64,000 bases of DNA from an uncultured Gammaproteobacteria bacterium. Its GTDB lineage: Bacteria; Patescibacteriota; Patescibacteriia; Magasanikbacterales; UBA922. The translations under genes were made by a program, and so were the position numbers. This document shows positions 8,531 through 30,271 of the stretch, in pieces. Every line of letters starts with the position of its first letter. Position 1 is the first letter of the stretch. Below the pieces are notes generated by a model, which was not told where the DNA came from, ran no database searches, and saw nothing but the letters and a program-made list of their open reading frames with translations. The stretch is taken from NCBI GenBank assembly GCA_965231005.1, contig OZ246405.1:610709-674708 (forward strand). The letters are read 5' to 3'.

Positions 8531-8532
8531 AG

Positions 8533-8929
8533 TGGAGATGCCGGGAATTGAACCCGGGTCTAGACGGGTTAGCGTCATAATCTACATGCATAGCTGCTTT
8601 GTTGTTTCATATGATGCTAAAAAAGCAACAAAATAACATCATACTAAGCCTGAATTACTTCAGACAGCATTGTCAGGCAACAATGTTGTCCTACACTCGA
8701 AAAGTTGAGACCGCCGATCCACTATCGAGTATTATGGGGGCGATCGCCGTGGCACTTAAGCTACAGCAGTTGCGAGTGCTGGAGTGCTGAATGCGTTAGC
8801 AATAGCGCTCTTTACTCGATTGACTAAGTTTGCACTTATGTCTTGCCTTTGGGTATTTACGAGAACAAAGACATTCTCGACATGCATATGTACGATAACA
8901 AGATCCATCTATCGAATCCTGTCATCCCC
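8533..8929 (-). ncRNA. ssrA: tmRNA (SsrA)
   Basis: On the minus strand the 5' end is GGGGATGACAGGATTCGA. The 3' end is CCCGGGTTCAATTCCCGGCATCTCCA, a tRNA-Ala-like T-arm. The acceptor pairs GGGGATG/CATCTCC with the G3:U wobble. The internal tag reading frame ends ...GCA CTC GCA ACT GCT GTA GCT TAA (..ALATAVA*). smpB lies immediately upstream. Confidence 0.92.
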
Positions 8930-12837: not shown

Positions 12838-13437
12838 ATGTTTCATCGTCCTTTGAGTAACATAACAAAACATTGGAAATTACTACTTCTCCTTGGTATT
12901 GCAACGGCACTTGTTGTATCGTTGATTACACTTATATTTCCTCGTGAATATCGTGCAGATGCAGACGTGCTGATTATTTCTAAATCAAGATATGGAGTTG
13001 ATCCGTACACTGTTGTAAAATCTGCAGAACGTATTGGTGAAAACGTTGCGCAGGTTATGCAAACAAATGATTTTTTTGAAAAAGTCATGAGTCAGCCAGG
13101 ATACTCTATAGACCAGGCTCGATTCCAATATATCCCTGAGCGGAAAAAAAGAAAAAGATGGAATAAAGCACTACAGCCATCAATCGTATATGGAACCGGT
13201 GTGTTACACATTAGTGCATATAGTTTACAACCAGACCAAGCAGCACAATTGGCTGGCGCAAGTGCAGACGCCTTGGTTACTCATGGTTGGGAATATGTTG
13301 GCGGTGATGTTTCAATGAAAATTGTAAATCCTCCTGTTGTAACACAGTGGCCAGTACGTCCAAATATTATTATGAATGGAATTGCTGCATTTTTCATTAG
13401 CATTGGTCTTATGGGAGCAGTCATTGCAAGAAAATAG
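12838..13437 (+). CDS. Wzz-like polysaccharide chain-length determinant family protein
   Basis: 199 aa with one TM helix at each end and a soluble middle. The N-terminal pattern (LLLLGIATALVVSLITLIFPREYRADADVLI) is typical of Wzz/CapA-type proteins. Confidence 0.5.
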   Translation: MFHRPLSNITKHWKLLLLLGIATALVVSLITLIFPREYRADADVLIISKSRYGVDPYTVVKSAERIGENVAQVMQTNDFFEKVMSQPGYSIDQARFQYIPERKKRKRWNKALQPSIVYGTGVLHISAYSLQPDQAAQLAGASADALVTHGWEYVGGDVSMKIVNPPVVTQWPVRPNIIMNGIAAFFISIGLMGAVIARK

Positions 13438-13869: not shown

Positions 13870-14067
13870 ATGTCCACAACAGTTCATCCAAAAGATAAAG
13901 ATACTAACAAACGTAATAAACGTTTGAATATTTTGATTGATGAATTACACAAAGAATTACGAGCAGTCCAAAAAGATGCGATTAGTCTCAGAATGAGTGC
14001 ACAAAAAGTTGTAGACAAGCAAAACATGAAGCACGTATTAGAGAAATTATTAGACAATGGTTCATAG
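13870..14067 (+). CDS. small coiled-coil hypothetical protein
   Basis: Start chosen at ATG 13870 (MSTTVHPKDKDTNKRNKRLNILIDELHKELRAVQKD...). The ORF-track start at 13813 would overlap the previous gene. Confidence 0.4.
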   Translation: MSTTVHPKDKDTNKRNKRLNILIDELHKELRAVQKDAISLRMSAQKVVDKQNMKHVLEKLLDNGS

Positions 14068-14083
14068 AATCATTCTTTTAACT

Positions 14084-17332: not shown

Positions 17333-17539
17333 AAAATTAGCCCTTTGACTCGTCACTTCGTTCCTCGCTAAGGACAAGCAAAAAACAAAGAACAAAAAAC
17401 AAGTATTTTAATTGGTATTATTCTTGAAAAAAATTACTAAAATGGCTTAAATAAGTCATTTTTTTCATTTCTTTATGTTTCTTACCTTTTTACTTTTTAG
17501 CATTTTCGCTTTTTTGCATTTTTAGTGATTGCAAAGTAC

Positions 17540-17568
17540 TTGACAAAATGGTAAAAATATGGTACAGT
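17540..17568 (+). promoter_or_regulatory. sigma70-type promoter (TTGACA-N17-TGgTACAGT) of the first G+C-rich operon
   Basis: TTGACA at 17540-17545 and TACAGT at 17563-17568, with a preceding TG. The 34-nt block 17537-17570 is 32/34 identical to 21721-21754. Confidence 0.65.
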
Positions 17569-17791
17569 TTGCTGTTTACAGTGCCCATATTGTGTATGAG
17601 CAGCATTTGTTGTGATCTCTTAGATTGTGACAGTTGCCAAGCAATATTTTTTCGCTGAAGTAAGCTAAAAAGTGCTGTAAAAAAATGCACATTACAAATA
17701 CATGATGCACCTATGTGTATTGGATTAGTCAATCAATGGATATTCTTTTTGCTGTCTTTTGATTGACTAACCCAATCAAGGAGGTGCAGTC

Positions 17792-19882
17792 ATGTCACCA
17801 GATCAGAAAAAACCTGATGGTGGTGCACATGGTAGTGCACCGCCGAAACGATCAACACTCGAACTTCATGCTGACAAGATCGTCAGCTTGGTCCAACAAG
17901 ACGGGCCAGAGGAGAACCCCATGACCGACAAGAAGACTGATACAACAACGCCGGGTCATGAGGTTCATGATTCGAATTCTGAAACCCCACCCCCGCTGCC
18001 AAGTGTGCTCGACTCGCTTGCTCCTGAGGACATAGCAAGAATAATAAGAGGAGAATCACAACCACTGCGAAGTGAATTGGTGCGATGTCCGAACTGTGGT
18101 GCTGTCTACCCTATGGATCAGGGAAAGGTCCAGGGTGGTTCTGAAAAGGATCAACAGTGTGTGTTGTGCCTTCATGAATTCACCCTCGGTGATGACAATG
18201 AAGCACAAGCAACAGCACAGTCTGAAACCCCACCACCAGTGCCTTCTTCGAACGTTCCGGCGGACAATGAGAAAATCCAATGTCCGAACTGCAAAACCAC
18301 ATTTCGGTCCATTGAAATCCTGCTTTGGGATCGCAATTACAAGTACGTCGTCTGCAGCCACGGATTCACCATCGATAACGACACTGAAGCACAAGCAACA
18401 GCACAGTCTGAAACCCCACCCCCACCCCCACTTCCGCTTCTCATTGGGGACAATGCCCCAGGTGGGAAGAACGTGACTTGCCCAAACTGCGATAAGGTCT
18501 ATTCACTGGATCCAGCTGACTTTGTAGGTGGTTTCCCGAACGTCTTTCAGTGCGCCCTATGCAATCATTGCTTCACTATCGATGATGAAACTGACGCACA
18601 GGATGACACACCACCTGCAATTCCGACCGCGCAGCAGCGTGCAGACAGAACAGGACTGACTGAGCCGTACAAGCCACTCGCCGACATCAAAGATCCAGAT
18701 GCTGATACGTCCACGATTCGTGAAACCATGCCAAGTCACCCGGGCCAAGCTCGTCGCGCTGAAAGCGATCACTACACGCAGGATGAACTTCCTCGCGTGG
18801 AAGATGAACGTGAAACACGGCAAGACCTTCCTGTTGTCACTGGCGATGATCAAGACACCAAGCCTGACATGGACGTTGTCAAAGCCGAAGACCTCGATGA
18901 AGACGATGCTGCTGAACTGGAAAAGGATGATGGCAAGGAAGCTGAAGAGCTGCCCCCGCCGATTTCAAGTCCCATGTTCAGTCCGGAACTGCGCAAACCA
19001 AACCCTGGTTTTCAGCTGCCTCCTCATCTCGAAGAGGTCGTTCGACTCTCTGCTGCTTCAACTCCCGATTCTCTTGCTTCCGGCGATGACGATCCATTCG
19101 GCGACGGCGGAGATCCCTTTGCTGGCCCAGGCACGAATCCCTTTGCTGTTGACGCAGATGATCCCTTCGGTGCTGAAGTTCCGTTCGGTCCAGGAGATGA
19201 TCTTGGGATGAAGGACGAAGACTACGGTGGTCCGAATGATTCTGTCGACGATGGTGATGAATTGCCTCCTGTCATGCCGGCTGATTCCAGTAAGGCGGCT
19301 CCCAAGCCGTCGCTGATTACTGGTTCCAGACCAAGGTTTCGTCCGACTGGACCTGTGCCTTCGGTTCACGATCAAGACGACAAAAGTGGCCCCCCGCCTC
19401 CTCGTCGTCAAGATCATCGAAAGACAATCCGAGTTCCACGTCATCGGCCGACTGCTCGTCCAGTGCCACCACCACCTCCTGGCCCGGCTCCCATTCGAAC
19501 GCCGACGCCTAGTGGTGGTTCACCCATTCCTGCATCTGCACCTGTTTCTACTCCGCCTCCGGCTGCGAGTACAACAGGACCGTCTGCTGCACCAACCCAG
19601 GCTGCTGCGGCTCCGCCCGCACAGTCACAACCGCCGGCTCCAACTGGGCCAGTGGTTGGTCCGACGGCATCAAGTGGCAGTGCTACTACACCGGTCAAGA
19701 CCAACAAGACCGTTGTGTGGATCATCGCCATTCTGATTGTTGCATGCCTGGCTCTCAATGCCTTTAGCGTGTGGCAAAGCAGAAACATCAGAAAGAACGT
19801 CATCGCGGTTCTGAAACATCGCGCTGGCATCCAAAAGGTCATTCAGGCTCCAATGCCGAAGACCAAGGGGGAAGAGAAATGA
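17792..19882 (+). CDS. G+C-rich tail-anchored protein with three MJ0042-like zinc-ribbon repeats and a long Pro/Asp-rich disordered region
   Basis: ATG at 17792 is preceded by AAGGAGGTG. There are three CPNC...(C/H)xxC units (aa 99-270). Long acidic and Pro-rich low-complexity stretches follow. A single C-terminal TM helix is VVWIIAILIVACLALNAFSVW. The stop overlaps the next start (ATGA at 19879-19882). Confidence 0.75.
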   Translation: MSPDQKKPDGGAHGSAPPKRSTLELHADKIVSLVQQDGPEENPMTDKKTDTTTPGHEVHDSNSETPPPLPSVLDSLAPEDIARIIRGESQPLRSELVRCPNCGAVYPMDQGKVQGGSEKDQQCVLCLHEFTLGDDNEAQATAQSETPPPVPSSNVPADNEKIQCPNCKTTFRSIEILLWDRNYKYVVCSHGFTIDNDTEAQATAQSETPPPPPLPLLIGDNAPGGKNVTCPNCDKVYSLDPADFVGGFPNVFQCALCNHCFTIDDETDAQDDTPPAIPTAQQRADRTGLTEPYKPLADIKDPDADTSTIRETMPSHPGQARRAESDHYTQDELPRVEDERETRQDLPVVTGDDQDTKPDMDVVKAEDLDEDDAAELEKDDGKEAEELPPPISSPMFSPELRKPNPGFQLPPHLEEVVRLSAASTPDSLASGDDDPFGDGGDPFAGPGTNPFAVDADDPFGAEVPFGPGDDLGMKDEDYGGPNDSVDDGDELPPVMPADSSKAAPKPSLITGSRPRFRPTGPVPSVHDQDDKSGPPPPRRQDHRKTIRVPRHRPTARPVPPPPPGPAPIRTPTPSGGSPIPASAPVSTPPPAASTTGPSAAPTQAAAAPPAQSQPPAPTGPVVGPTASSGSATTPVKTNKTVVWIIAILIVACLALNAFSVWQSRNIRKNVIAVLKHRAGIQKVIQAPMPKTKGEEK

Positions 19883-21558
19883 ATACGTTTATCAAGGTGC
19901 TACTCGCCATTCTCATCGGGGTTGTGGTCGCTGTGTCCGGCTACTTCGCATGGGAAACCATGAACACGAACAAGGCGCTCCTCGCTGAACTGAACAAGAC
20001 CGACAACGGTGCCCAGGAGGACACCAAGGTCAAGCCGGCGCCGAAGAAGTCGGCTGTCAAGAAAGCTGACAAGGCTTCCACGTCCCAGGCCAAGACGGCC
20101 GGCGACAAGAACGACCCCAAGAAGGTCGAGGAAGCTGCGAAGGCTGCCGAAGCCAAGAAGAAGGCCGAGGCCGAAGCTGCTGCCAAGGCTGCTGAAGCGA
20201 AGAAGAAGGCTGACGAAGCTCGCAACGACTGGGATGAAATCAACTCCCGTGGCGACGACCAACTCAGAGCTGAGAAGTTCGACGAAGCGTTCAAGACCTT
20301 CAAATCCTTGATCGGACACGAGCATCAGAATCATGGACTGGCTTACTACAACATCGCCTGCCTGTTCTCGGTGCAGTCTGTGTCAGACAAGCTCAAGGGC
20401 AAGAAGAAGGCGATTCGCAAGAGCAAGAAGCAAGCCCTCCACTACCTGGCTCAGGCCTGGGTAGCCGGCTACGACGACCTCGAATGGATGGAGAAAGACG
20501 AGGATCTCGATTCGATCCGCAAGACCCGCGGCTACAAAGAGATCAAGCGTCTGGCAGTGGAAAAGGGACTGGTTCGGCTCCCTGCGCCGGCCACCGAAGA
20601 CGTCGCCAAGAAGGCCAAGGATGAGCAGAAGGAACCCACGCCCAAGCTGACCGGCATCCACGCCCTGCGTGCCATGCCGATCAAGGGAGTTGCCGATTCT
20701 GACGAAGCCAGCAAGGCTGACAAGGACGCCAAGCGCATCGCCAACGCCAACGCCAAGAAGGTCAAGGGCAAGAAGGTTCGCAAAGGCAGCCGCGGCATCT
20801 CGTTCCTGGCCAAGGCTCGAGCCGAAGCCAAGCGGATGTACGCCAAGCTCCACAAGGACCAGAAGGCTCGTCGTGCAGCGCTCAACCGTGCGATCGCCCG
20901 ACTCAAGCGTGGCTACAAGCGCAAGAGCGATCTTGACAAGCAGGACGTTGACGACGAGATCGCAGAGCTCAAGCGAAAGGAGCAGGAACAGTCCGACGAC
21001 GAGGATCGGAAAGCCAAGGAAGAGGCCGAAAGGATGCTCGCCGACGGCAAGACCCAAGACGAGGTCAAGGCTATGTACGATGCTCTGGAGCGCAAGCAAC
21101 AGGCTCGTCGTGCAGCGCTCCTCAGCAAGATCGCGGACGAGCAAAGGCAGGCACGACAGCAGCGTCAGGATGATGCAGTCGACCTTCGCGATGAGATCGC
21201 CAAGCTGCGCGAAGCCGACAAAAAGGCTGACACGCAGTCCGCGGCAGCTGCCAAGGATCACGTGCAAGCCTTGTTCGACAAAGCGCAAGCCGCGACCAAC
21301 CGCGCCAACGCAAAGCGCGCGCGTCAACAGCGTCAGCGTGCGGCAGCGCCCTCGCGTCCGAGCTCGCCGCCCAGCCGTCCGGCTTCGGGTGGTTCGTCCA
21401 GCCTCGCACATGCGCCTGCGGCAGTTTCCAGCTGTCCGTATGGTGGAGACGAGGCCAACTGCGTCAAGAAGACGGTCGCGTACTTGACCAAGTTCGGTAC
21501 GCCCCTGGCCGATGCCAAGGGGAGTGCCAAGGCCAAGTGCAGCGCGCGCTGTCTGTAG
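19879..21558 (+). CDS. G+C-rich N-terminally anchored Lys/Ala-rich coiled-coil protein with a TPR-like segment and a C-terminal 4-Cys module
   Basis: Start ATG 19879 (MNTFIKVLLAILIGVVVAVSGYF is a TM anchor). A TPR-like block is YYNIACLFS...ALHYLAQAWVAGYDDLEWMEKDEDLDSIR. The C-terminus is CPYGGDEANCVKKTVAYLTKFGTPLADAKGSAKAKCSARCL. Confidence 0.72.
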   Translation: MNTFIKVLLAILIGVVVAVSGYFAWETMNTNKALLAELNKTDNGAQEDTKVKPAPKKSAVKKADKASTSQAKTAGDKNDPKKVEEAAKAAEAKKKAEAEAAAKAAEAKKKADEARNDWDEINSRGDDQLRAEKFDEAFKTFKSLIGHEHQNHGLAYYNIACLFSVQSVSDKLKGKKKAIRKSKKQALHYLAQAWVAGYDDLEWMEKDEDLDSIRKTRGYKEIKRLAVEKGLVRLPAPATEDVAKKAKDEQKEPTPKLTGIHALRAMPIKGVADSDEASKADKDAKRIANANAKKVKGKKVRKGSRGISFLAKARAEAKRMYAKLHKDQKARRAALNRAIARLKRGYKRKSDLDKQDVDDEIAELKRKEQEQSDDEDRKAKEEAERMLADGKTQDEVKAMYDALERKQQARRAALLSKIADEQRQARQQRQDDAVDLRDEIAKLREADKKADTQSAAAAKDHVQALFDKAQAATNRANAKRARQQRQRAAAPSRPSSPPSRPASGGSSSLAHAPAAVSSCPYGGDEANCVKKTVAYLTKFGTPLADAKGSAKAKCSARCL

Positions 21559-21578
21559 TCTGATCTGGTGAGAACCTG

Positions 21579-21660
21579 GCTTCCCGGTGCTCGTACGTTT
21601 ATTCGTACTTGCATCGGGAAGCCTCCTCACTTTCTTCTTTTTCTTGAAAAGAGGGGAAAG
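21579..21660 (+). terminator. 3' cassette module: G+C-rich hairpin followed by a CT/AG hairpin
   Basis: GGCTTCCCGGTGC...GCATCGGGAAGCC spans 21579-21623. CTTTCTTCTTTTTCTTGAAAAGAGGGGAAAG spans 21631-21660. Confidence 0.5.
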
Positions 21661-21723
21661 CAGGGAAAATACCTTATTTAAGCCAAAAAAGATAAGTTTT
21701 TATGGTCTATAAAGCCTAAATAC

Positions 21724-21752
21724 TTGACAAAATGGTCAAAATATGGTATAGT
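21724..21752 (+). promoter_or_regulatory. sigma70-type promoter (TTGACA-N17-TGgTATAGT), near-identical copy of the 17540 promoter
   Basis: TTGACA at 21724-21729 and TATAGT at 21747-21752, with an extended -10 TG. Confidence 0.65.
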
Positions 21753-21943
21753 TTCTGGTCAAAATTGATAAAATATATACCCTTATCTATTGGCGTGCCA
21801 GTGCATAATCCATGCAATATGCAGTGCGCGCGAGTGTGATAAGGTACAGAAAATGTACATCGTACATTCTTTGTGTGTCACACCGCTTTCCAGACGTTTT
21901 AACGTCATCCAACAGGTTCATTACATTACTACATCACTACAAC

Positions 21944-22086
21944 TGTTCGATCGGTAAACAAGTTCATAATATTTGTGTACTGCTTTACCGGTCGAACATT
22001 TCACATCGCCTTTCTGACCGGGGGCACAGTTAATTCCAAGGTACGTTACCAAGGAACAAATTGACTGCGCCTGGTTTTCTGGGCGA
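21944..22086 (+). promoter_or_regulatory. conserved structured 5' leader element, copy 1 (143 nt)
   Basis: It aligns along its length with 24885-25027. The long stem is GTTCGATCGGTAAA / TTTACCGGTCGAAC. Further hairpins have conserved stems and variable loops. It lies 27 nt upstream of the ATG at 22113. Confidence 0.6.
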
Positions 22087-22112
22087 CGTGAAACAACAGA
22101 AGGAGGTGCGCA

Positions 22113-23402
22113 ATGGCGTACGCCGTTCGAAAAACCCGATCCGGGGGTGCCGGACAATACGTTTCAGTTTTTTCCGACCGTGCTGCGGTTCTCCGAAAAA
22201 TCGCGCGAGGGATGATCCGCAAGGGTGCGTTCATTCGCGTGGTTCCGGACACGGCTGCTACCAACGATGGCGAGAAGGCCGCAGTCAAGGCTGATCTGGA
22301 TAACGCGGATTTCGTGCTCATCGAGAACCATCCGCATTTCGCTGGCATCAACTTCCCGGCGCCTGCTGACGCTTCGGCTGCTGCGACTGCGGATGCTGCG
22401 GCCACCCGTGCGAATGCCAATGCTGCTGCGGCCAATGTGACCGTTGCGGAGGCTACTGCTGCTCAGGCTCAAACCGAAGCCGACGCTGCTAACGCTCGTG
22501 CCAACGCTGCTGATGCCGCCACTGCTCAGGCCAACGCCGAGGCTACTGCTGCTCAGGCTCGTGTCGACGTTGCCAACGCTGCTGCTGCTCAGGCCAACGC
22601 CGAGGCTACTGCTGCTCAGGCTGCTGGGGATGCTGACGCTCAAGTTGCTGCTGCAGAGGCTGTTGCGGAGGCTGCTGCTGCTCAGGCCGATGCTGCTCAG
22701 GCACATGCCGACGCGGTTCAGGCTGCTGCGGATGCTGCTCAGGCTGCTGCGGATGCTGCTGACGCTGCTACCCAGGCTGGTGCTGCTGCCGGTCAGGCTC
22801 TGATCGCTACCAGTCAAGCTCGGGATGCTGCTGCTGAGGCTGAGGCTGAGGCGCTCGAGGCACAGGCCGATGCGGACGATGCTGCTGCCTTTGCTCAGGC
22901 TCAGGCCGACGAGCGGGCCAATCGCCGTTCGGTTCGGTTCGTCGCGTGGCTGCGTCGCAACTGGAAGAAGGTTCTGCTGGCTCTGCTGGTTCTCCTCCTT
23001 CTCGGTTGCGTGTGGTTCTTCTGGAGCAACATCAAGGCCCTGGTCACGGGGGGTGGTGGTTCGCCGCCGCCTTCGGTGGTGAACCCGCCGACCCCACCGA
23101 CGCCGCCCGTTCCGACGCCGCCCGTTCCGCCGCCGCCGGCTGCGACTCCGGTCGTTCCGCCGCCGACGGTGACGCCTCCGCCACCGCCCGCGACTCCGCC
23201 GGTTTCGCCGACGGTCACGCCTCCGCCGACCCCGCCGACTTCGGGGGGCACGGCAGCGCCGACTGGACAGCCTGGCTGTCCGTTCGGTGTGGGGTACACG
23301 GACTGTTACACCAAGACGGTGGCCTACCTGGTCAGCCATGGTGTGGCGACTTCGGACGCGCAGGACAAGGCGCGCGAGAAGTGCGGACCGCGTTGCAGGT
23401 GA
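22113..23402 (+). CDS. G+C-rich Ala-rich repeat protein with a central TM helix, a Pro/Thr-rich linker and a C-terminal 4-Cys module
   Basis: ATG is preceded by AAGGAGGTG. Repeats of the AAAQANAEATAAQA type occur. TM helix WKKVLLALLVLLLLGCVWFFW. A PPTPPTPPVPTPPVPPPP linker follows. The C-terminus is CPFGVGYTDCYTKTVAYLVSHGVATSDAQDKAREKCGPRCR. Confidence 0.72.
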   Translation: MAYAVRKTRSGGAGQYVSVFSDRAAVLRKIARGMIRKGAFIRVVPDTAATNDGEKAAVKADLDNADFVLIENHPHFAGINFPAPADASAAATADAAATRANANAAAANVTVAEATAAQAQTEADAANARANAADAATAQANAEATAAQARVDVANAAAAQANAEATAAQAAGDADAQVAAAEAVAEAAAAQADAAQAHADAVQAAADAAQAAADAADAATQAGAAAGQALIATSQARDAAAEAEAEALEAQADADDAAAFAQAQADERANRRSVRFVAWLRRNWKKVLLALLVLLLLGCVWFFWSNIKALVTGGGGSPPPSVVNPPTPPTPPVPTPPVPPPPAATPVVPPPTVTPPPPPATPPVSPTVTPPPTPPTSGGTAAPTGQPGCPFGVGYTDCYTKTVAYLVSHGVATSDAQDKAREKCGPRCR

Positions 23403-23410
23403 TGTAGCCT

Positions 23411-23500
23411 GTTGGAGGGAAGCCCGCTACCGGCGCATGCATTCGTGTGTGTGTCCGGTAGCCCTCCAACCGCTTTCTTTTATAAAAGAGAAAGAGGTTG
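23411..23500 (+). terminator. 3' cassette module: G+C-rich hairpin plus an overlapping CT/AG hairpin
   Basis: GTTGGAGGG (23411-23419) pairs with CCCTCCAAC (23462-23470). CCAACCGCTTTCTTTT...AAAAGAGAAAGAGGTTGG (23465-23500) reuses the 3' arm, so the two structures are mutually exclusive. Confidence 0.5.
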
Positions 23501-23824
23501 GGGGAATACAAAATTAGAAATTGGAAATTAGGGATTAAGTGTATTGACATATTGAGTAATAGAGAAAAGAAATTTTCTTTAGTACTCAGGGTGTCATGTA
23601 GACATTATTGTAAAATTACAATGTGTCTCGTGTCCTGATTAGACAGGTTCATTATAATTTAGTTGAAGAATAACTATCTGGTGGGTAAAAAGATAATATA
23701 CATATGTTACTTTTTTTCTCACCAGATAGTGGCACGTGCCGCTTGTTTCTTCGTCGCCCTTGGGGCATTTCACAAATGGCCCCATCGGTGAGGAGGGGCA
23801 AGGCAACAACAACAGGAGGACGCG

Positions 23825-24724
23825 ATGAACATCCGTCTCGTTTCGTTCATGATCGTCGCATCGGTGACGGTCGGTTTCATTTCCATCAACTCATTCGCGC
23901 AGGCACCGGCCGACTACCCAGCCGTTCGCGACGATGCGCACAAGGGTGCTTCGCTCGCCGAGTCCAACGCCAAGCGCCTGACCGCCCTGGAGAAGCGGAT
24001 CAAGCGGCTCAAGCGCGCCAAGGCTGCGGCCAAGGCCAAGCACACGGCCAACCCGACCCCCGCCAACAACGTCGCTCTGAAGGCCGCGGTCCGCGCGCTC
24101 GACGAGGCCAAGAAGGCAGGTCTGTCCATGTGCGCCCTGAAGACTGGCGAGGATTTCCGGCACTGCATCGACGTCGTGGAAGGCAAGGTGTTCGAGGTGG
24201 AGAAGGACTCCATCCGGATGGCCGCGCTGCTCGCAGTCGGCTGCATCGTGAAGGAGAACAAGTCCACAGATCCTTCCAAGGGTTCGAAAAAGGGCGCATC
24301 CATCACGACCACCGAGCTCGTCTGCGACAAGGACAAGGCCAAGAAGGCGCCGCGCTGCATCCGGTTCAAGCGCTTCAGCAAGCACGCGCACACCTACTTC
24401 GACGTCGGCGGTGACAACTGCAAGGAAGAAGACAGCAACCCGCTGCCCAAGAAGCCGGCGACTCCGCCCAAGCCCAAGGCCGAACCGTGGTCCAAGGGCA
24501 AGCGTTTGCTGGCCAGCGCTGGCATGTGCCTGCTGGCCGGTGGTGTGCTCGCTGTTCCTGGTTACGTCATCGGCGACGCCATCGAGGGCGGTCACTGGGA
24601 GACCAATCCGGAGACCGGCAACGACGACTGGTATGCGCCCAAGGGTCCGCTCGGTGCTGGCATCGGCGGTCTGACCGGCTGCCTCAGCGCGTTCGCGGGC
24701 ACATGGAGTGCGACGAGCGAGTAG
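23825..24724 (+). CDS. G+C-rich secreted/membrane protein, function unknown
   Basis: ATG is preceded by AGGAGG. Signal peptide MNIRLVSFMIVASVTVGFISINSFAQA. Lys/Ala-rich helix. Several Cys residues. C-terminal hydrophobic Gly-rich segments (LLASAGMCLLAGGVLAVPGYVIG; GAGIGGLTGCLSAFAG). Confidence 0.68.
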   Translation: MNIRLVSFMIVASVTVGFISINSFAQAPADYPAVRDDAHKGASLAESNAKRLTALEKRIKRLKRAKAAAKAKHTANPTPANNVALKAAVRALDEAKKAGLSMCALKTGEDFRHCIDVVEGKVFEVEKDSIRMAALLAVGCIVKENKSTDPSKGSKKGASITTTELVCDKDKAKKAPRCIRFKRFSKHAHTYFDVGGDNCKEEDSNPLPKKPATPPKPKAEPWSKGKRLLASAGMCLLAGGVLAVPGYVIGDAIEGGHWETNPETGNDDWYAPKGPLGAGIGGLTGCLSAFAGTWSATSE

Positions 24725-24748
24725 CCTTTCTTCAACTGCTGAATCTGT

Positions 24749-24826
24749 CGGGGGTTGGTAGCATGTTCATTCATGTCTGTCAACCCCCGTCGGAATATCT
24801 TTCTCTTTGTAAAAAGGGAGAGATGA
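24749..24826 (+). terminator. 3' cassette module: G+C-rich hairpin followed by a CT/AG hairpin
   Basis: CGGGGGTTG (24749-24757) pairs with CAACCCCCG (24781-24789). ATCTTTCTCTTTGTAAAAAGGGAGAGAT spans about 24797-24826. Confidence 0.5.
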
Positions 24827-24884
24827 ACGATTATTGTTCATTACAATTGAGAAACTACTACAGAAACATCTTGAATACCTTTTG

Positions 24885-25027
24885 TGTTCGATCGGTAAAC
24901 AAGTACATAACATTTGTGTACTGCTTTACCGGTCGGACATTTCCACATCGCCTTTTTGACCGGGGGCACAGTTAATCCGTGGCGTGTTGCCGCGGACCAA
25001 ATTGACTGCGCCTGAGAAATTGGGCGA
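24885..25027 (+). promoter_or_regulatory. conserved structured 5' leader element, copy 2 (143 nt)
   Basis: Homologous to 21944-22086. The stem substitution A to G keeps pairing as G-U. One hairpin is replaced by CCGTGGC-GTGTT-GCCGCGG. It lies 44 nt upstream of the ATG at 25072. Confidence 0.6.
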
Positions 25028-25071
25028 TTGTGGAATGATTCGGGCGAGACCCGAGAAAAGAGAGGTAACTC

Positions 25072-28000
25072 ATGAACAGCAAGCTCAACACGATTTCCGT
25101 TTGTTTCGTGGCGCTGATGATCGTTTTCGGGTGCAGCCCGGACGCGAGCTACAAGCCCAACGACCCCAAGAACCCCAACCCGGCCCGCAAGGCCGATGCC
25201 AACAACAGCGACACCAGCAGCGCGGATGCGGGTTCGAGCGCGGATACCGGTCAGCCGACCGATCCGTGCGCCGATCCCAAGTTCTGCAACGATGGCAAGG
25301 TCTGCACGGCCGACACCTGCAAGGACGGCAAGTGCAAGCACACCATCGACGCGACGCTCTGTGATGACGGCAACCCCTGCACACATGACCTGTGTGACGA
25401 CCTGGGGATCTGTGTGAACAAGGCTCACGAAGGTTCGTGCCAGGACGGGAATGCCTGTACTGTGGGTGATCATTGCAAGAATGGCACCTGCCAGTCGGGA
25501 AAGAACATGCCCTGTCCCAACGAGAACTCGTGTGTCATCGCAACCTGCAACCCGAAAGAAGGCAAGTGCAACTACGAGCCCAAGAGCGGTGACTGCAACG
25601 ACGGCAACAAGTGCACGGTTGGCGATTTCTGCATCAACCAGAAGTGCAAGAGCGGTTTCAAGAAGTTGGACTGTGATGACAAGAACGTGTGCACGACTGA
25701 CAGCTGCAATCCAGAAGACGGTTGTGTTCACAAGCCGATCGACCTTCCCTGCAGCGACAACAGCTCGTGTACCATCTCGGATAAGTGCAAGGACGGAAAA
25801 TGCGTGGGCCAGGTTGTCAACTGCGACGACAAGAACCCGTGCACGACCGACTCGTGCGATCCGGCGGCGCCCCCGGGCAAGGCATGCAAGCACGTGAACA
25901 ACACCAGCGAGTGCGACGACGGCAACAAGTGCACGTCCGGCGACGTTTGCCAGGATGGTCAGTGTAAGAAGGGAACCACGTCGGTCGATTGCGACGACGG
26001 GAACCCGTGCACTACCAATTCCTGCGACGCCAAGGTCGGCTGCCAGAAGCTCAACAACAACAACTCGTGCGACGACGGCAACAACTGCACCATCAATGAC
26101 AAGTGCTTTAACGGCAAGTGCAACTCCACTACCAAGAAGTGTGGCGACAGCAACAAGTGCGTCACCAACACGTGCGACCAGGCAACTGGCGCGTGTGTGA
26201 AAAAGGAGCTGTGCGACGACGGCAAGGCCTGCACCGAAAACACGTGCGACATCAACACCGGCAAGTGCGAAAACCCTGACAAGAAGTGCGACGACGGCAA
26301 GGCCTGCACCAAGGATAGCTGCAACACCACCACGGGCAAGTGCGAGTACGAGATGATCGTTGGTGCGAACTGCTTCTGCAAGTTCGACTCCAACTGTGAC
26401 GACGGAAACGAGTGCACTGTCAGCGCATGCGATAAGGCGACTGGCAAATGCGCGCTCGCGAAGAAGTACAGCGGGACCTCGTGTGACGACGGGAACCCGT
26501 GCACCACCTCGGACAAGTGCGACCCCAAGACCGGCAAGTGCTCGTCGGCAAAGGCCACGGCCTGCGACGACGGGAACCCCTGCACGGACGACTCCTGCGA
26601 CCCCACGGTCGTTGGCGGTTGTGTGGCGGTGAAGAACAACAAGCTGTGTGACGACGGTGACGCGTGCACCAAGGGTGATATCTGCCTGGACGGCGCGTGT
26701 AACCCCGGCAAGGCCCCGGTCTGCGACGACGGCAACATCTGCACGGATGACAGCTGTGACTCGAAGCTCGGATGCAAGAACACGGCCAACTCGGCCAGCT
26801 GCTCGGATGGGAGCGCCTGCACCTCAAACGACAAGTGCGAGGGCGGGAGCTGCAAGAGCGTTGCGGTGAAATGCGACGACTCCAACCCCTGTACCGACGA
26901 TAGCTGCGACGCGAAGGTCGGCTGCAAGTACGCCAAGAACACCAAGCCGTGTAACGACGGTGACGAGTGTACCATCAGCGAGGTGTGCAAAGACGGCAAG
27001 TGTGGTTCTGGCAAGGCCAAGTCGTGCGACGACAACAAGAAGTGTACCATCGACTCGTGCGACAAGGACAAGGGCTGCCAGCACAAGCAGATTTCCTCGG
27101 CGACCTGCTGCGCTTCGGACGCTGAGTGCGACGATAAAAAGCCGTGCACGGTGGACAAGTGCGATCCGAAGGAAGGTTGCAAGAACACCAAGAAGCTCTG
27201 CTCGGACAACAACCAGTGCACCGACGACGTGTGTGATCCCCAGTCTGGAGATTGCAAGCACACGAAGTTCAGTGGACCGGCCTGCGACGACGGCAACAGT
27301 TGTACCAAATCCGAGAAGTGCGAAAAGGGCAAGTGCGAAGCTGGCTTTACCATCAAGTGCAACGACAACAAACCCTGCACCAAGGATACGTGCGACACCA
27401 AGGGCGGATGCGTCTTCACCAAGACCGTGGATCCCTGCGACGACGGGGACGCGTGTACGAATGGAGACAAGTGCGCCAATGGCGAGTGCGTGTCTGGCAA
27501 GCAGATCGTCTGCGACGACAACAAGGTCTGCACGACCGACAGCTGTGACTCCAAGAAGGGGTGCGTGTTCGCGAACAATTCGGATGCCTGTACGGACGGA
27601 AACGCCTGTACACCGAATGACGTCTGCAAGGACGGCAAGTGCTCGTCGCAGCCTGAGAACTGTGACGACGCGAACGCGTGTACCAACGACAGTTGTGACA
27701 AGAGCAAGGGCTGCAAGCACATCAACAACACCAAGGTCTGCAACGACGGCAACAAGTGTACGGACAACGGAGTCTGCAGTGGCGGCGCCTGCAAGCCGGG
27801 CAAAGCCATCAACTGCGACGACGGCAAGAAGTGCACGACGGATAGCTGTGACCCGACCACGGGCAAGTGCAAGAACGTGGCGCTGGTGTGCGATGACGAC
27901 GCCTGTACGGATGGCGATGGCAAGTGTGACGAGAGCACGGGCAAGTGTGCAGTGGGTCTTCCCAAGAACTGCACTGACACCGACGTGTGTACCAAGAATT

Positions 28001-28593
28001 TCTGCTCGGAAGGAACCTGCAAGGTCTCTCCGAACTGCGATGACGGGAACGCATGCACGGCTGATAGCTGTGACCCAAAGAAGCCCGAGAAGGATCAGTG
28101 TTCGCACGTCCCGATCTCGGGTTGCAAGTCGGTCGAGGTCAAGCTCTCCGTGGTTTTTTCTGAGATGTTCAAGATGGAAGCCGCACCCAAGGGTGGCAAC
28201 TACGTCCGGTTCTTCGTCAAGAAGTGCGAGGCCAAGGCTGCTGACGGCTCGTCCGTCATGTTGCTCAAGCCTGGCTCCTTCTACGGAGGCGCTGAGATCA
28301 AGAACAGCTCGAAGCTCGAGTACACCAATCCTGCAAAGGTCCAGGACTTCGTGCAGATCCCGAAGAATGCCTGCTGCATCAACATCGTAGGGTACCAAAG
28401 CAGTAAGATCTCCAATCCTTACGGGGACTCGAAGATCTGGGCTTTCAGTACGACTCCCAATACCAAGACCCACAACATGGAGCCGGTCCTCACGACCAGC
28501 AATGGACTGACGTACAAGTTCACGTTGAAAGACGTCCATGACAACGGTGTGGGGGGATACGACGCGTGCAACAGCGAAGTCATCTCCAAGTAG
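25072..28593 (+). CDS. G+C-rich giant Cys-rich repeat lipoprotein (CDDGNxCTxDxC-type repeats, roughly forty copies) with a distinct C-terminal domain
   Basis: The N-terminus MNSKLNTISVCFVALMIVFGC is a probable lipoprotein signal. From about aa 66 to 985 there are ~24-aa units in two alternating flavours: CDDxNxCTxDxCDxxxGCxH and CxDGNxCTxxDxCxxGxC. The last ~180 aa are non-repetitive. Confidence 0.85.
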   Translation: MNSKLNTISVCFVALMIVFGCSPDASYKPNDPKNPNPARKADANNSDTSSADAGSSADTGQPTDPCADPKFCNDGKVCTADTCKDGKCKHTIDATLCDDGNPCTHDLCDDLGICVNKAHEGSCQDGNACTVGDHCKNGTCQSGKNMPCPNENSCVIATCNPKEGKCNYEPKSGDCNDGNKCTVGDFCINQKCKSGFKKLDCDDKNVCTTDSCNPEDGCVHKPIDLPCSDNSSCTISDKCKDGKCVGQVVNCDDKNPCTTDSCDPAAPPGKACKHVNNTSECDDGNKCTSGDVCQDGQCKKGTTSVDCDDGNPCTTNSCDAKVGCQKLNNNNSCDDGNNCTINDKCFNGKCNSTTKKCGDSNKCVTNTCDQATGACVKKELCDDGKACTENTCDINTGKCENPDKKCDDGKACTKDSCNTTTGKCEYEMIVGANCFCKFDSNCDDGNECTVSACDKATGKCALAKKYSGTSCDDGNPCTTSDKCDPKTGKCSSAKATACDDGNPCTDDSCDPTVVGGCVAVKNNKLCDDGDACTKGDICLDGACNPGKAPVCDDGNICTDDSCDSKLGCKNTANSASCSDGSACTSNDKCEGGSCKSVAVKCDDSNPCTDDSCDAKVGCKYAKNTKPCNDGDECTISEVCKDGKCGSGKAKSCDDNKKCTIDSCDKDKGCQHKQISSATCCASDAECDDKKPCTVDKCDPKEGCKNTKKLCSDNNQCTDDVCDPQSGDCKHTKFSGPACDDGNSCTKSEKCEKGKCEAGFTIKCNDNKPCTKDTCDTKGGCVFTKTVDPCDDGDACTNGDKCANGECVSGKQIVCDDNKVCTTDSCDSKKGCVFANNSDACTDGNACTPNDVCKDGKCSSQPENCDDANACTNDSCDKSKGCKHINNTKVCNDGNKCTDNGVCSGGACKPGKAINCDDGKKCTTDSCDPTTGKCKNVALVCDDDACTDGDGKCDESTGKCAVGLPKNCTDTDVCTKNFCSEGTCKVSPNCDDGNACTADSCDPKKPEKDQCSHVPISGCKSVEVKLSVVFSEMFKMEAAPKGGNYVRFFVKKCEAKAADGSSVMLLKPGSFYGGAEIKNSSKLEYTNPAKVQDFVQIPKNACCINIVGYQSSKISNPYGDSKIWAFSTTPNTKTHNMEPVLTTSNGLTYKFTLKDVHDNGVGGYDACNSEVISK

Positions 28594-28640
28594 TTCTCAA
28601 GAAAATGATCACTCCCTCCTGCGCAATGTGATCTGCCGTG

Positions 28641-28712
28641 GACGGGCTCGAGCCTGAAACTCGAGTCCGTCCCGGCCGCGCAACTCCGAATATGATTCAC
28701 GTCTATTCGGAG
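28641..28712 (+). terminator. two G+C-rich hairpins closing the island
   Basis: GACGGGCTCGAG-CCTGAAA-CTCGAGTCCGTC spans 28641-28671. CTCCGAATA-...-TATTCGGAG spans 28684-28712. Confidence 0.45.
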
Positions 28713-28774
28713 CTCCCCAAGGTTCATTTTTCCTCAGAAAAGTGGACACTTGTAAGAGTTAAACATAGGTACAG

Positions 28775-28802
28775 GAAACAAGATATATATCTTGTTTTTT
28801 GT
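28775..28802 (+). terminator. rho-independent terminator (host style)
   Basis: AAACAAGATATATATCTTGTTTTTTG: an AT-rich perfect stem followed by a T-run. Confidence 0.7.
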
Positions 28803-28831
28803 TTGAATAATAGTGTTTTTTCAAGTATACT
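28803..28831 (+). promoter_or_regulatory. sigma70-type promoter (TTGAAT-N17-TATACT), probably giving a leaderless or near-leaderless mRNA
   Basis: The -35 is at 28803-28808 and the -10 at 28826-28831. The ATG at 28838 lies only 7 nt after the -10 box. Confidence 0.55.
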
Positions 28832-28837
28832 GTGAAT

Positions 28838-30271
28838 ATGAAATCGCCAAATTTCTTATCTTATTTTTCACACAACCAGCTTAAAAAAACACATGTACTT
28901 GGTGTCTCTTTTATTATTATAATAATGACAGCCGCCCTTTTACTATTTTGGGATATATATCCTCTAGCAATTATATTCCTCATAGGATTAGTAGGAATAT
29001 CCACATTTGCTCTAAAACCAGAGTGGGGATTGTACAGTGTTCTCTTTCTTGGACTATTTCATGGATGGGTCATAGATTTTTCTACATATCAGAGCGTCAA
29101 ACATATTCCATATCTTCCTCAGATCAATGCTCCTTTGGTTGATTTCTTTGCGATTGTTTTATTCATTGGAGTTTTTCTTTTATATTTATTTCAATTTCAA
29201 AAATTAGCTATTTTGAAACGTCTAAGACACATCAAAACAGGAATAGTTATATATATTCTTTTTCTTATCACAGCACTTGCAGCTGTTTTTTTTGCATTTA
29301 ATAATTTTTTTACACCAAGTATAAAATATTTTATGCGACCGCTGGTGTTTGTGTTTGTTTTGTATTGGCTCTTGCCAATTATTCTTATTAGAACAAAAAA
29401 ACAATTTTCATCTGTAATGAAACTATGGTTCTGGACTGGTATTGGCATTGCAATATTTGGTTTGATATCTTTATTTGTTCTTGGGCAAACAGGATGGATT
29501 CGTGTTGTTCCATTTGGCATAAAAGGGTTTGCCCCACTTGGATACAATCATAATCAACTTGCAGAAGTATTAATTTCTTTATTTCCTGCTGGACTATTTC
29601 TTTTCTTACGAAGTTTTTCAAAAGAAGAAAAAAGATTGTATGGTTTTGGAACATTTTTTATTATTATCATTGCACTCCTAACACTTTCTCGGGCTGCTTG
29701 GGCTGCAGTACTTGTACAAGTAGGCTTTCTCTTTTGGTTTTTCCGTTCAGCAGTGCGTCCATTCATGTATAAATTTCAAAAGATAACCACGCTATTATTG
29801 ATAGCAATTATTCCAGCTATTCTTTACATGAGTGTTTTTCTTGGATCGTCCATTGTAAAAAGTTCAACAAATGCCCGAGTGGAAGCAACAAAAATCGCAT
29901 TATTTTATACTGTTCGTTCTCCAGTCGTTGGATATGGTCCTGGTATGTTTGGCTATGTTATGGATGACACGTTTTTGTACACGCTCGAATTTGGAGAGTC
30001 GCTTGATGCACATGGGTTTATTCAAAAAGTCATGTTAGAAGAAGGATTTCTTGGCTTGCTGTTCTTTGTTGGTTTTTTGGGTTGGATATTGTGGTATATA
30101 TATCAGGCAAGAGAACATGGCATGCAAAGAGATCTTGTTGAGGTATTATTTGTCATGGCAATAGGAGCAATTATTTTTCAACTATTTAATACGTCCTATT
30201 TTAATTCTGTAATGTGGTTGCCACTTGGGGTGGCCACTGCTGGAACGCTTCTTTTAAAAAATGATTCCTAG
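28838..30271 (+). CDS. O-antigen ligase/polymerase (Wzy_C) family membrane protein
   Basis: About 10-12 TM helices. It carries a Wzy_C-type loop motif (ALLTLSRAAWAAVLVQ). Confidence 0.75.
   Translation: MKSPNFLSYFSHNQLKKTHVLGVSFIIIIMTAALLLFWDIYPLAIIFLIGLVGISTFALKPEWGLYSVLFLGLFHGWVIDFSTYQSVKHIPYLPQINAPLVDFFAIVLFIGVFLLYLFQFQKLAILKRLRHIKTGIVIYILFLITALAAVFFAFNNFFTPSIKYFMRPLVFVFVLYWLLPIILIRTKKQFSSVMKLWFWTGIGIAIFGLISLFVLGQTGWIRVVPFGIKGFAPLGYNHNQLAEVLISLFPAGLFLFLRSFSKEEKRLYGFGTFFIIIIALLTLSRAAWAAVLVQVGFLFWFFRSAVRPFMYKFQKITTLLLIAIIPAILYMSVFLGSSIVKSSTNARVEATKIALFYTVRSPVVGYGPGMFGYVMDDTFLYTLEFGESLDAHGFIQKVMLEEGFLGLLFFVGFLGWILWYIYQAREHGMQRDLVEVLFVMAIGAIIFQLFNTSYFNSVMWLPLGVATAGTLLLKNDS

Follow-up and report, generated by a model that had tools for sequence, protein, structure and literature searches.

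In Borrelia, the vls locus is a G+C-rich surface locus for antigenic variation in an AT-rich genome, with an array of silent cassettes and an expression site. Genes for surface-layer (S-layer) and other abundant envelope proteins have strong promoters and long, stable 5' leaders. The concept of amelioration of horizontally acquired genomic islands reportedly goes back to Lawrence and Ochman in 1997. In Peribacteria, which belong to the candidate phyla radiation (CPR), genes for large, cysteine-rich extracellular proteins are clustered and vary between strains, and a role in attachment has been proposed for their products (Anantharaman et al. 2016, PMC4736985). These proteins weakly resemble Cys-rich repeat proteins of Myxococcus, and because the genomes are 58.5% G+C overall, no compositional island was reported there (PMC4736985). 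Here we analyzed a stretch of 64,000 nucleotides of contig OZ246405.1 (referred to as the window), in which a row of five genes for putative envelope proteins (g1 to g5, positions 17792 to 28593) forms an island of high G+C content in an AT-rich genome. The island looks like a textbook example of foreign DNA, yet the comparisons described below point to a locus that is conserved in place among relatives and whose composition has survived deep divergence. The best explanation, and in our judgment a probable one, is that it is an ancestral, fast-evolving envelope-display locus of strong expression cassettes, the open reading frames (ORFs) of which are either kept G+C-rich by some force or repeatedly replaced.

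The high G+C content followed the ORFs of the island. It was 0.52 to 0.62 per kb at 18 to 28 kb, versus 0.31 to 0.41 in nearly all other kilobases of the window. A first-pass annotation, made from the sequence alone, had described G+C-rich coding DNA with open frames between 17792 and 28593, in surroundings of 30 to 40% G+C. The description of the coding DNA held: the five genes are 54 to 66% G+C with a G+C content at third codon positions (GC3) of 0.45 to 0.84, versus ∼36% G+C and a GC3 of 0.23 to 0.31 for eight host genes, and long ORFs run in several reading frames across the island. The figure for the surroundings was accurate except for one gene at 4593 to 5423 (GC, 0.59). In 200-nt windows, G+C content switched within ∼200 nt at ORF ends and fell from 0.585 to 0.30 after g3. 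The spacers, which had been said to fall back to AT-rich sequence, did move toward the host (0.32 to 0.45; mean, 0.40) but did not fully reach the value for host intergenic DNA (0.34). The G+C effect is tied to the ORFs rather than to the region, and regional mutation bias fits poorly as its cause, since the change is sharp at the ORF ends.

Every amino acid family in g2, g4, and g5 favored G/C-ending codons, in agreement with the first-pass annotation; AAG reached 0.90 to 0.97 and CAG 0.69 to 1.0, TTA was not used at all, and the codon usage of these three genes resembled that of a 70% GC gene. This codon set differs from the one preferred by the host, in which ribosomal protein genes have a GC3 of 0.22 to 0.28 (genes for L20, L35, and IF3). 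Because the preference extends to every family, the excess is not an amino acid effect. It is hardly credible that the excess is a mere by-product of amino acid content (Ala, Pro, Gly, and Cys repeats): although G+C content at first and second codon positions (GC1/GC2) is high in g1 (0.66/0.51) and g3 (0.75/0.62), from Pro/Ala-rich low-complexity sequence, GC1 of g5 is ordinary (0.44) while its GC3 is 0.82, the GC3 of g4 is 0.84, and G/C-ending codons prevail in all families. GC3 and the codon tables refute this explanation for g2, g4, and g5.

An assembly or binning artifact that joined G+C-rich DNA of another organism to a Patescibacteria contig was also considered, and short-read contigs do start or stop in it or at its edge (L001 to L004, L005 at its 3' end, and L161 and L162 at their 5' ends; L numbers designate contigs or loci used for comparison). 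L002 to L004 end and L001 begins within the island, L005 ends in a g5-like gene, and L161 begins 316 nt before the Wzy gene that follows the island. However, contigs from the assemblies of two separate ENA runs (ERR2281800 and ERR2281801) were 100% identical to the window over both outer junctions and two inner spacers; L003 and L004 cross the left junction and the g2-g3 spacer, L002 covers 23501 to 24722, and L001 (27851 to 34571) crosses the right junction. Furthermore, g1 and g2 are recorded on an NCBI contig of 1,232,850 bp, the arrangement recurs in unrelated projects, including contigs of 914 kb and 984 kb, and AT-rich spacers with host-type promoters occur inside the island. A chimera, for which the first-pass annotation had proposed that the junctions be checked, is excluded by these identical, independent contigs as nearly as such data permit and is exceedingly improbable. 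The breaks of short-read contigs probably reflect repeats, which sit within genes (g3 and g5) or within leaders.

Homologue searches placed the host in the Patescibacteria, as a Candidatus Magasanikbacteria-like organism. An AI-2E transporter gene near the island matched Patescibacteria only; the best matches were in L005, a metagenome-assembled genome (MAG) labeled Gammaproteobacteria (71% identity), and, at 62%, in a MAG of Candidatus Magasanikbacteria. The Wzy_C protein downstream of the island has >100 homologues, the named ones mostly from Candidatus Magasanikbacteria. The public titles of L005 (CAZTEU010000006.1) and L007 (CAYYFM010000010.1) read "uncultured Gammaproteobacteria"; these labels look wrong because gene content and best matches are Patescibacteria/Magasanikbacteria-like.

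The island occupies a slot that follows a block of three genes (p255-p357-p199, the last of which encodes a Wzz-like protein) and precedes a polysaccharide cluster of Wzy and GT4 glycosyltransferase genes. Seven or more other related genomes carry a G+C-rich island of predicted membrane-anchored proteins and lipoproteins in this slot: it was found in L005, L007, L072, L120/L144/L069, L096, L162, and L163 and, weakly, in L160. Orthologues of p199 adjoin the islands of L005 (56% identity), L007 (33%), L072 (34%), and L163, and Wzy_C orthologues flank those of L072, L120, L160, L162, and L163. The assignment of p199 as Wzz-like comes from a weak TIGR03007 chain-length-determinant match and from a weak PF02706 Wzz match of its orthologue in L160.

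The composition of the slot differed between sub-clades. In L005, which has a host GC3 of 0.23 to 0.28, the island has a GC3 of 0.51 to 0.75; its genes resemble, in this order, g3, g4, and g5, and the contig ends within the last of them, which encodes a Dicty-repeat lipoprotein. In L162, a g5-like gene of 0.60 GC lies directly upstream of Wzy. A mid-GC sub-clade (L072, L120/L144/L069, L096, L163, and L007) has a host G+C content of ∼0.47 to 0.50 and islands of 0.61 to 0.70, with a GC3 of 0.72 to 0.94. Within it, the island ORFs of L072 have a GC of 0.64 to 0.70 and a GC3 of 0.88 to 0.91, versus a GC of 0.48 to 0.50 and a GC3 of 0.42 to 0.53 for the host genes; the island of L120/L144, which adjoins Wzy-GT4, has a GC3 of 0.88 to 0.94. 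L163, on the 914-kb contig, has the order SmpB-p255-p357-p199, island, Wzy; its host GC is ∼0.47, and island windows are mostly 0.59 to 0.68, with a spacer dipping to 0.51. In L160, the 984-kb Magasanikbacteria contig (host GC3, 0.23), the slot holds five genes whose products have architectures of the same types as in the window, namely, two transmembrane (TM) proteins with a C-terminal Cys motif in common, one signal-peptide protein, and two Cys/Asp-repeat lipoproteins, with a GC3 of 0.39 to 0.52 and one gene at 0.23.

Comparison of two members of the mid-GC sub-clade indicated that the composition is old. The gene order 511-224-673-991 of L072 matches the order 486-230-559-740 of L120/L144. 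Their island proteins were 33 to 41% identical (BLASTP), versus 64% for the Wzy flank, and these alignments show the island proteins to evolve faster than flanking proteins. Third-base identity at conserved four-fold codons was 0.56 to 0.68 in the island, versus 0.50 to 0.60 expected at saturation, and 0.36 in the flank, versus 0.27 expected. Since four-fold identity is near saturation, L072 and L120/L144 have been split long enough to randomize synonymous sites, yet GC3 is ∼0.9 in both. It is the ORFs, not the spacers, that stay G+C-rich although synonymous sites are saturated between species.

The expression signals between the ORFs were conserved as well. Matching spacers of L072 and L120/L144 carry two different promoter variants at corresponding positions, the spacers of L120 and L096 are 81 to 93% identical, versus 65 to 70% for their ORFs, and 71 nt of the g4-g5 spacer of the window are 80% identical to a spacer of L005 while g3 and g4 barely align. 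Because promoters are shared and spacers are better conserved than ORFs, the scaffold is of ancestral origin, and this genome did not acquire the island recently and on its own. Gene order and alignments together show the locus, as far as sequence comparison can do so, to be ancestral to the clade and to travel with its flanks.

These findings bear directly on the first-pass annotation, which had proposed a recent acquisition of several genes from a high-GC donor, possibly the host or prey of the epibiont, that were put under native promoters. A single recent import of this kind, for instance from a Myxococcota host or prey, appears largely refuted by synteny, and we consider it very unlikely. 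The ORF composition is foreign looking, and the suggested link of the Cys repeats to Myxococcota was supported: g5 had thousands of repeat-level matches, the named ones mostly in MAGs of Myxococcales and Deltaproteobacteria, and the best match (44% identical and repeat driven) lies in a 70% GC contig; g1, in addition, carries MJ0042-type ribbons. However, this site is occupied by an island in seven or more other related genomes, AT-rich and mid-GC, with promoter variants kept at matching positions and with orthologues that are more diverged than the flanks. Vertical conservation in relatives, which the first-pass annotation had named as the finding that would tell against its proposal, is thus largely what was observed.

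No donor-like close homologue of any of the five genes was found in sets of 5.8 and 1.84 billion sequences, the best outside identity being the repeat-driven 44%. No homologue of g4 was found, and an exhaustive profile search of 1.84 billion representatives with the 4-Cys domain shared by g2 and g3 returned only g2 itself and low-complexity noise; in an exact-sequence look-up, g3 and g5 were not on record. Pfam and PHROGs scans detected no integrase, recombinase, transposase, or phage gene (for recombinases, among window ORFs of ≥150 amino acids), and the reading of the island as a prophage was rejected for lack of phage genes (PHROGs). For L160 and L163, the flanks have no recombinase on record, a repeat scan revealed no direct repeats flanking the island, and the nearest tRNA gene is 11 kb away. 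Of the features by which genomic islands are recognized, atypical composition was therefore present, but not absence from the same site in relatives, mobility signatures, or close homologues in a plausible donor lineage. The domain families may originally have come from high-GC bacteria, but not recently, and an ultimate foreign origin or repeated replacement of ORFs is possible.

The preferred explanation leaves two ways in which ancestral cassettes could contain G+C-rich ORFs. In the first, high G+C content would be maintained by a force on the island ORFs, either selection on transcript or codon composition or GC-biased gene conversion at a recombination-prone surface-antigen locus. We put forward only tentatively that the clade keeps a vertically inherited surface locus at a GC3 of ∼0.75 to 0.9 (other genes, 0.23 to 0.5), with synonymous sites saturated, by means of such an ORF-specific force. 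If so, this would be an ORF-specific force that is not known from bacteria at such strength; it could be selection for host-rare G/C-ending codons or G+C-rich transcripts in exported proteins, or very strong GC-biased gene conversion restricted to an antigen locus that recombines, and isolated G+C-rich genes elsewhere that follow promoters of this type may be further members of the class.

Repeats in the leaders are relevant to the second of these candidates. A 131-nt leader element at 21944 to 22073 is repeated before g5 (24885 to 25014) with 88.5% identity, and in L120 (reverse strand) the spacers 414-230 and 559-740 contain a duplicated 120-nt element with 96% identity. The duplicated elements suggest recent duplication or gene conversion between spacers; the exchange within the locus to which they point keeps biased gene conversion in play. 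With regard to transcripts, those of island ORFs are intrinsically more stable (-90 to -126 kcal/mol per 300 nt) than those of host genes (-53 to -66).

Several observations weigh against the preferred explanation. When compared to synonymous-codon shuffles, island ORF transcripts had z-scores of +0.5 to -3.4 (host genes, 0 to -2); as they fold no better than synonymous shuffles, there is no evidence of selection for particular structures beyond composition. Ordinary translational selection also fits poorly as the cause, because G/C-ending codons are rare in host ribosomal protein genes. The range of GC3 within the island of the window (0.45 to 0.84), the weak excess in L160 (GC3, 0.23 to 0.52), the absence of g1 and g2 from L005, and the different repeat families in equivalent lipoprotein slots would also fit gene turnover followed by amelioration. 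L164 has a Wzy cluster without an adjoining island. The orthology of g3 and g4 with the genes of L005 rests on position, architecture, and weak matches: the g3-like protein has an N-terminal BLASTP match (E, 6e-5) and, as read from the sequence, a similar CPF...C...AY...C..C C-terminal end, and the g4-like protein, with the architecture and position of g4, is barely alignable (E, 0.06). Finally, AlphaFold2 models of the g5 C-terminal domain and of g4 were both unusable (predicted local distance difference test [pLDDT] scores, 38 and 51).

The main rival to maintenance is repeated ORF replacement, in which the ancestral scaffold of promoters, leaders, and hairpins serves as a landing pad and its ORFs are periodically replaced from high-GC bacteria, possibly attachment partners, and then ameliorate. 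Replacement would account for lipoprotein repeats that differ by sub-clade (Dicty_CTDC in the window, Cu-binding_MopE in L072 and L120, and TSP_3 in L160), for an orthologous P2-type promoter that precedes unrelated ORFs in different sub-clades (g3 versus a MopE lipoprotein), for the presence of g1 and g2 here but not in L005, and for the GC3 gradient within the island and the weak excess in L160, which look like ORFs of different ages. It is also in line with a codon usage that copies that of a high-GC genome in all amino acid families, with domain families common in Myxococcales MAGs, and with the isolated G+C-rich gene at 4593 to 5423, which lies behind the same promoter type. However, the very large databases searched contained no donor-like homologue of any ORF, neither a recombinase nor a recognizable recombination site was found, and a precise swap of an ORF between leader and hairpin has no known mechanism here. 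Moreover, within the mid-GC sub-clade, order and orthology are kept and GC3 is ∼0.9 despite saturation, so that parallel replacement would be needed in each lineage. We therefore regard landing-pad replacement as rather unlikely, though a good deal more plausible than a single recent import.

The distribution of GC3 among and within genes was also examined. By the predicted topology of g3, GC3 drops from 0.59 in the cytoplasmic N-terminal domain to 0.47 in the Ala repeats, which are rich in GCT, and then rises to 0.78 across the TM helix and the part outside the cell. The lowest GC3 in the island (0.45) is that of g1, the bulk of which is predicted to be cytoplasmic. A simple link of GC3 to export fits poorly with the isolated gene at 4593 to 5423, which looks cytoplasmic: it encodes 276 amino acids with no TM segment and has a GC of 0.59 and a GC3 of 0.70. 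The promoter immediately ahead of this gene (TTGACAAAAGGGGTTTTTTGTGCTATACT, at 4484) is of the class found in the island, and the gene had no Pfam, NCBIfam, PHROGs, or plasmid match; no G+C-rich region was seen in the counterpart stretch of L005, between PPDK and the tRNA. Relatives hold other scattered single G+C-rich ORFs (L164, 186 to 653; L120, 1500 to 2162; L007, 2475 to 2948 and 4000 to 5172). It is possible that the phenomenon of G+C-rich ORFs involves more than one locus.

A hydropathy scan gave the same five topologies as the first-pass annotation (tail anchor, N-terminal anchor, central TM helix, signal peptide, and lipoprotein), and topology and domains agree with its description of a module of envelope or secreted proteins. 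By this prediction, all five products are membrane tethered; the bulk of g2, g4, and g5 and the C-terminal part of g3 would be outside the cell, and the bulk of g1 inside. The TM helix of g1 spans residues ∼641 to 661 of 696. The zinc ribbons recognized by the first-pass annotation were confirmed by matches to Zn_ribbon_4 (PF13717; 48.1 bits versus a cut-off of 30.3; 1.1e-12; three stretches) and MJ0042_CXXC (TIGR02098; 28.9 bits versus 20.9; 6.8e-7), which by these curated cut-offs place g1 among the predicted MJ0042-type zinc-ribbon proteins. An 83-nt direct repeat within g1 (18156 to 18238 and 18342 to 18424; 81% identity) duplicates the end of a zinc ribbon and the linker 'EAQATAQSETPPP'; as far as the alignment goes, it shows a recent internal domain duplication.

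The start of g2 overlaps the stop of g1 (ATGA), and the TPR_END_plus match in g2 was the one addition from NCBIfam. The central TM helix of g3 lies at residues ∼285 to 307; a weak Zot-like PHROGs match to its TM and Pro-rich part was judged compositional. A second hydrophobic segment is present in g4 at residues 227 to 253. The N terminus of g5, MNSKLNTISVCFVALMIVFGC, has a hydrophobic core followed by VFG-C (sequence and hydropathy scan), and its Dicty_CTDC match (PF00526; 303 bits versus a gathering cut-off of 27; E, 1.5e-92; 19 stretches) assigns it to that Pfam family. The C-terminal ∼150 amino acids of g5 had no counterpart in the two best-covering matches that were compared.

We propose that the segment represents, in this genome, an envelope-protein locus common to a Candidatus Magasanikbacteria-like clade and lying between the Wzz-like block and the Wzy/GT4 surface-polysaccharide cluster. 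In this model, g1 would be a tail-anchored zinc-ribbon protein, g4 a signal-peptide protein, and g5 a large Cys-repeat lipoprotein, and g2 and g3 would be bitopic proteins, each with a long low-complexity stalk whose tip presents a small C-terminal 4-Cys domain outside the cell. The products would make up a display or adhesion layer on the surface that serves attachment to other cells and acts together with the neighboring polysaccharide. We infer this surface role from topology and domains; it is in line with the attachment proposed for Cys-rich proteins of CPR Peribacteria (PMC4736985).

The expression signals suggest how the cassettes may be used. The promoters P1 and P2 (Table 1) match 10 to 11 of 12 consensus positions and carry the TG of an extended -10 element. 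The first-pass annotation had identified P2 in the first spacer and had not listed P1; its view that P2 is native was supported, since the promoter class TTGACAAAA-N13-TGNTAnnnT also precedes some host genes. Nearly identical P2-type promoters, including the nonconsensus spacer and the inverted repeat TTGAC-N6-GTCAA, are present inside the islands of L005, L072, L120, and L096. A scan of metagenomes for the promoter pattern returned 87 loci, mostly unrelated AT-rich promoters, among which only L069, L072, L096, L120, and L144 were informative; L140 was G+C-rich throughout and considered unrelated. The same scan of a viral collection gave five matches, none of them informative.

A promoter scan found nothing of P1/P2 quality before g4 or g5, in accord with the first-pass annotation. 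Thus g1 and g2 follow P1, g3 follows P2, and g4 and g5 sit behind chains of hairpins. P1 would serve g1 and g2, and P2 would serve g3 and probably g4 and g5, with hairpins after each stop codon; expression of g4 and g5 may come from read-through from P2 or from weaker signals. The hairpins noted in the first-pass annotation proved to be pronounced: when compared to dinucleotide shuffles, the g1 leader, the g3 leader, the g3-g4 spacer, and the g4-g5 spacer folded far better (z = -5.7, -7.5, -13.1, and -9.6, respectively). The Shine-Dalgarno sequence and the AUG of g1 are paired in the fold predicted for its leader. A strong promoter followed by a long stable leader, as in S-layer-type expression units, is present here (leaders of about 200 to 360 nt; z, -5.7 and -7.5), and the near-consensus promoters and folded leaders look built for strong output.

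Two short motifs recur in the noncoding DNA. The box (G)TTCATTACAA lies 100 to 260 nt before the start codon of every island gene with its own leader (window, 21916, 23647, and 24836, with a variant at 17688; L005, 15631, 16881, and 18406). It is limited to the sub-clade of the window and L005, with one variant in L072, and may act in processing, as an operator, or as part of an alternative promoter. The motif CCTTATTTWAGC occurs 40 to 100 nt upstream of island promoters (21666 to 21685 and, inverted, 17443 to 17462; in L005, ∼15280 and ∼15420), and this motif and the TTGAC-N6-GTCAA inverted repeat may be regulator-binding sites. When seven leaders were folded to a consensus, only the TTCATTACAA box aligned, so that the folding yielded no common structure and no covariation in support of an RNA motif shared among them. 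A search of Rfam at gathering thresholds identified nothing beyond the transfer-messenger RNA (tmRNA) and a tRNA; two island matches were at chance level (E up to 1).

The 64-kb window is largely an envelope-polysaccharide region, with three Wzy_C genes, many GT4 glycosyltransferase genes, an epimerase, a carbamoyltransferase, and an extracytoplasmic function (ECF)-type sigma factor paired with a DUF5667 protein. The latter two genes and a gene for a ∼1280-amino-acid protein without Pfam match form a trio at 40198 to 46379, downstream of Wzy/GT4, and the trio is kept downstream of Wzy/GT4 in L160 (16502 to 21434), L161, L162, and L163. Immediately upstream of the island is an AT-rich ORF of 1091 amino acids (14057 to 17332), where L005 has unrelated ORFs of 158 and 389 amino acids; the 1091-amino-acid ORF matched nothing in Pfam or NCBIfam and, having no relative in the genome collection, was useless as a synteny probe. 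A tmRNA gene at 8530 to 8929 (tag, ANLVNRVKSAIANAFSTPALATAVA) and a tRNA-Asp(GTC) gene at 6726 to 6799 (minus strand) account for two small G+C peaks outside the island.

Table 1. Features of the island and its landmarks (coordinates are positions in the window)
Feature	Position	Strand	GC	GC3	Description
p199, Wzz-like membrane protein	12838..13437	+			Left landmark of slot; last gene of p255-p357-p199 block, upstream of island in relatives
Promoter P1	17540..17568	+			TTGACAAAATGGTAAAAATATGGTACAGT; extended -10, 17-nt spacer; upstream of g1; 92% identical to P2 over 37 nt
g1 leader, structured	17576..17791	+			Inner hairpin 17719-17776; inverted repeat I5; fold z = -5.65
Box variant	~17688	+			CACATTACAAA; in g1 leader
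g1	17792..19882	+	0.540	0.45	696 aa, tail-anchored; 3-4 MJ0042-type zinc ribbons, acidic and Pro-rich low-complexity region
g2	19879..21558	+	0.601	0.75	559 aa; N-terminal anchor, Lys/Ala-rich stalk, TPR_END_plus, C-terminal 4-Cys domain
g2 3' hairpins	21559..21723	+			Palindrome 21578-21623 (I4), then pyrimidine/purine hairpin ~21633-21663
Motif upstream of P2	21666-21685	+			CCTTATTTAAGCC; repeat/inverted-repeat comparison
Promoter P2	21724..21752	+			TTGACAAAATGGTCAAAATATGGTATAGT; TTGACA-17-TATAGT with TG; 11/12 matches; inverted repeat TTGAC-N6-GTCAA inside
g3 leader, structured	21753..22112	+			360 nt; box GTTCATTACAT 21916-21926; long hairpin 21941-22001; fold z = -7.45
g3	22113..23402	+	0.656	0.60	429 aa, bitopic; cytoplasmic N-domain, Ala-rich repeats, TM helix, Pro-rich stalk, C-terminal 4-Cys domain
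g3-g4 spacer, hairpin chain	23403..23824	+			Hairpins 23426-23462, 23463-23504, ~23545-23595, 23673-23730 (I2); fold z = -13.1
Box	23647-23657	+			GTTCATTATAA; in g3-g4 spacer
g4	23825..24724	+	0.638	0.84	299 aa; signal peptide, helical coiled-coil ~residues 45-103 (confident), Gly-rich hydrophobic C terminus
g4-g5 spacer	24725..25071	+			Hairpins 24744-24794, 24797-24824, long 24885-24939; fold z = -9.55
Box	24836-24846	+			GTTCATTACAA; in g4-g5 spacer
g5	25072..28593	+	0.581	0.82	1173 aa, lipoprotein-type, 13% Cys; at least 19 Dicty_CTDC repeats and ~150-aa C-terminal domain
g5 3' region	28594..28831	+			GC-rich hairpins; perfect-arm palindrome 28771-28802 (I12), then T-run
Weak promoter for Wzy gene	28803-28831	+			Promoter scan
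Wzy_C (O-antigen ligase/polymerase-like)	28832..30271	+			Right landmark of slot, then GT4 glycosyltransferases; Pfam scan

Regions of atypical composition are discarded by binning tools and are routinely taken as evidence that horizontal transfer occurred recently. Because a conserved locus here mimics a foreign island, transfer calls based on composition can be wrong in CPR genomes. The breaks of short-read assemblies inside the island mean that the proteins most likely to contact a host are probably missing from many MAGs and composition-based bins; a literature search turned up nothing on G+C-rich islands in Magasanikbacteria or Patescibacteria, or for PRJEB17505. The stalked 4-Cys domain without detectable relatives and the Cys-repeat lipoproteins are candidates for the attachment surface of Magasanikbacteria, and the promoters and leaders provide a defined set for expression studies. 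If an active force maintains the G+C content, the locus would offer a tractable natural setting in which biased gene conversion could be told apart from selection on codons or transcripts.

Each of the systems with which the locus was compared resembles it in part. As in acquired genomic islands, atypical composition and codon usage are confined to a block of accessory surface genes; unlike them, it has no integrase, tRNA gene, or flanking repeat, occupies the same site across the clade, and is unameliorated despite saturation. A row of ORFs on one strand, spacers that form hairpins, and gene content that varies between relatives recall integron cassettes, but the spacers are 350 to 550 nt long and carry sigma-70 promoters, so that the cassettes are not promoterless. 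An integron was rejected because no IntI or other recombinase was found and no attC GTTRRRY core was recognized, the box GTTCATTACAA being unlike it.

Like Borrelia vls, the island is a repetitive surface locus far richer in G+C than its genome, with signs of exchange within the locus. In contrast to vls, it has no silent array of partial copies (looked for among the repeats), no expression site, and no strong GC skew, and it encodes several unrelated products, each with its own expression signals. A reading as antigenic-variation cassettes was rejected because the repeats include no array of silent partial copies with homology to an expressed gene. The near-consensus promoters, highly folded leaders, and 3' hairpins around envelope-protein genes are like those of S-layer-type genes; however, Pfam revealed no S-layer domain or homology, and the proteins are predicted to be TM or lipid anchored rather than to assemble into a lattice.

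With the clusters of Peribacteria, the locus has in common that genes for secreted or membrane-associated Cys-rich proteins are clustered in an ultrasmall CPR genome, a likeness without demonstrated sequence orthology. Weak resemblance to Cys-rich repeat proteins of Myxococcus, variation from strain to strain, and attachment as the proposed role are further points in common. It differs from the clusters as described (PMC4736985) in its cassettes of promoter, folded leader, and hairpin and in its fixed slot between Wzz-like and Wzy genes. Islands of surface-protein genes are thus already a known kind of locus; among them, this one stands out in that it is conserved across a clade, has expression signals arranged like cassettes, and has failed to ameliorate.

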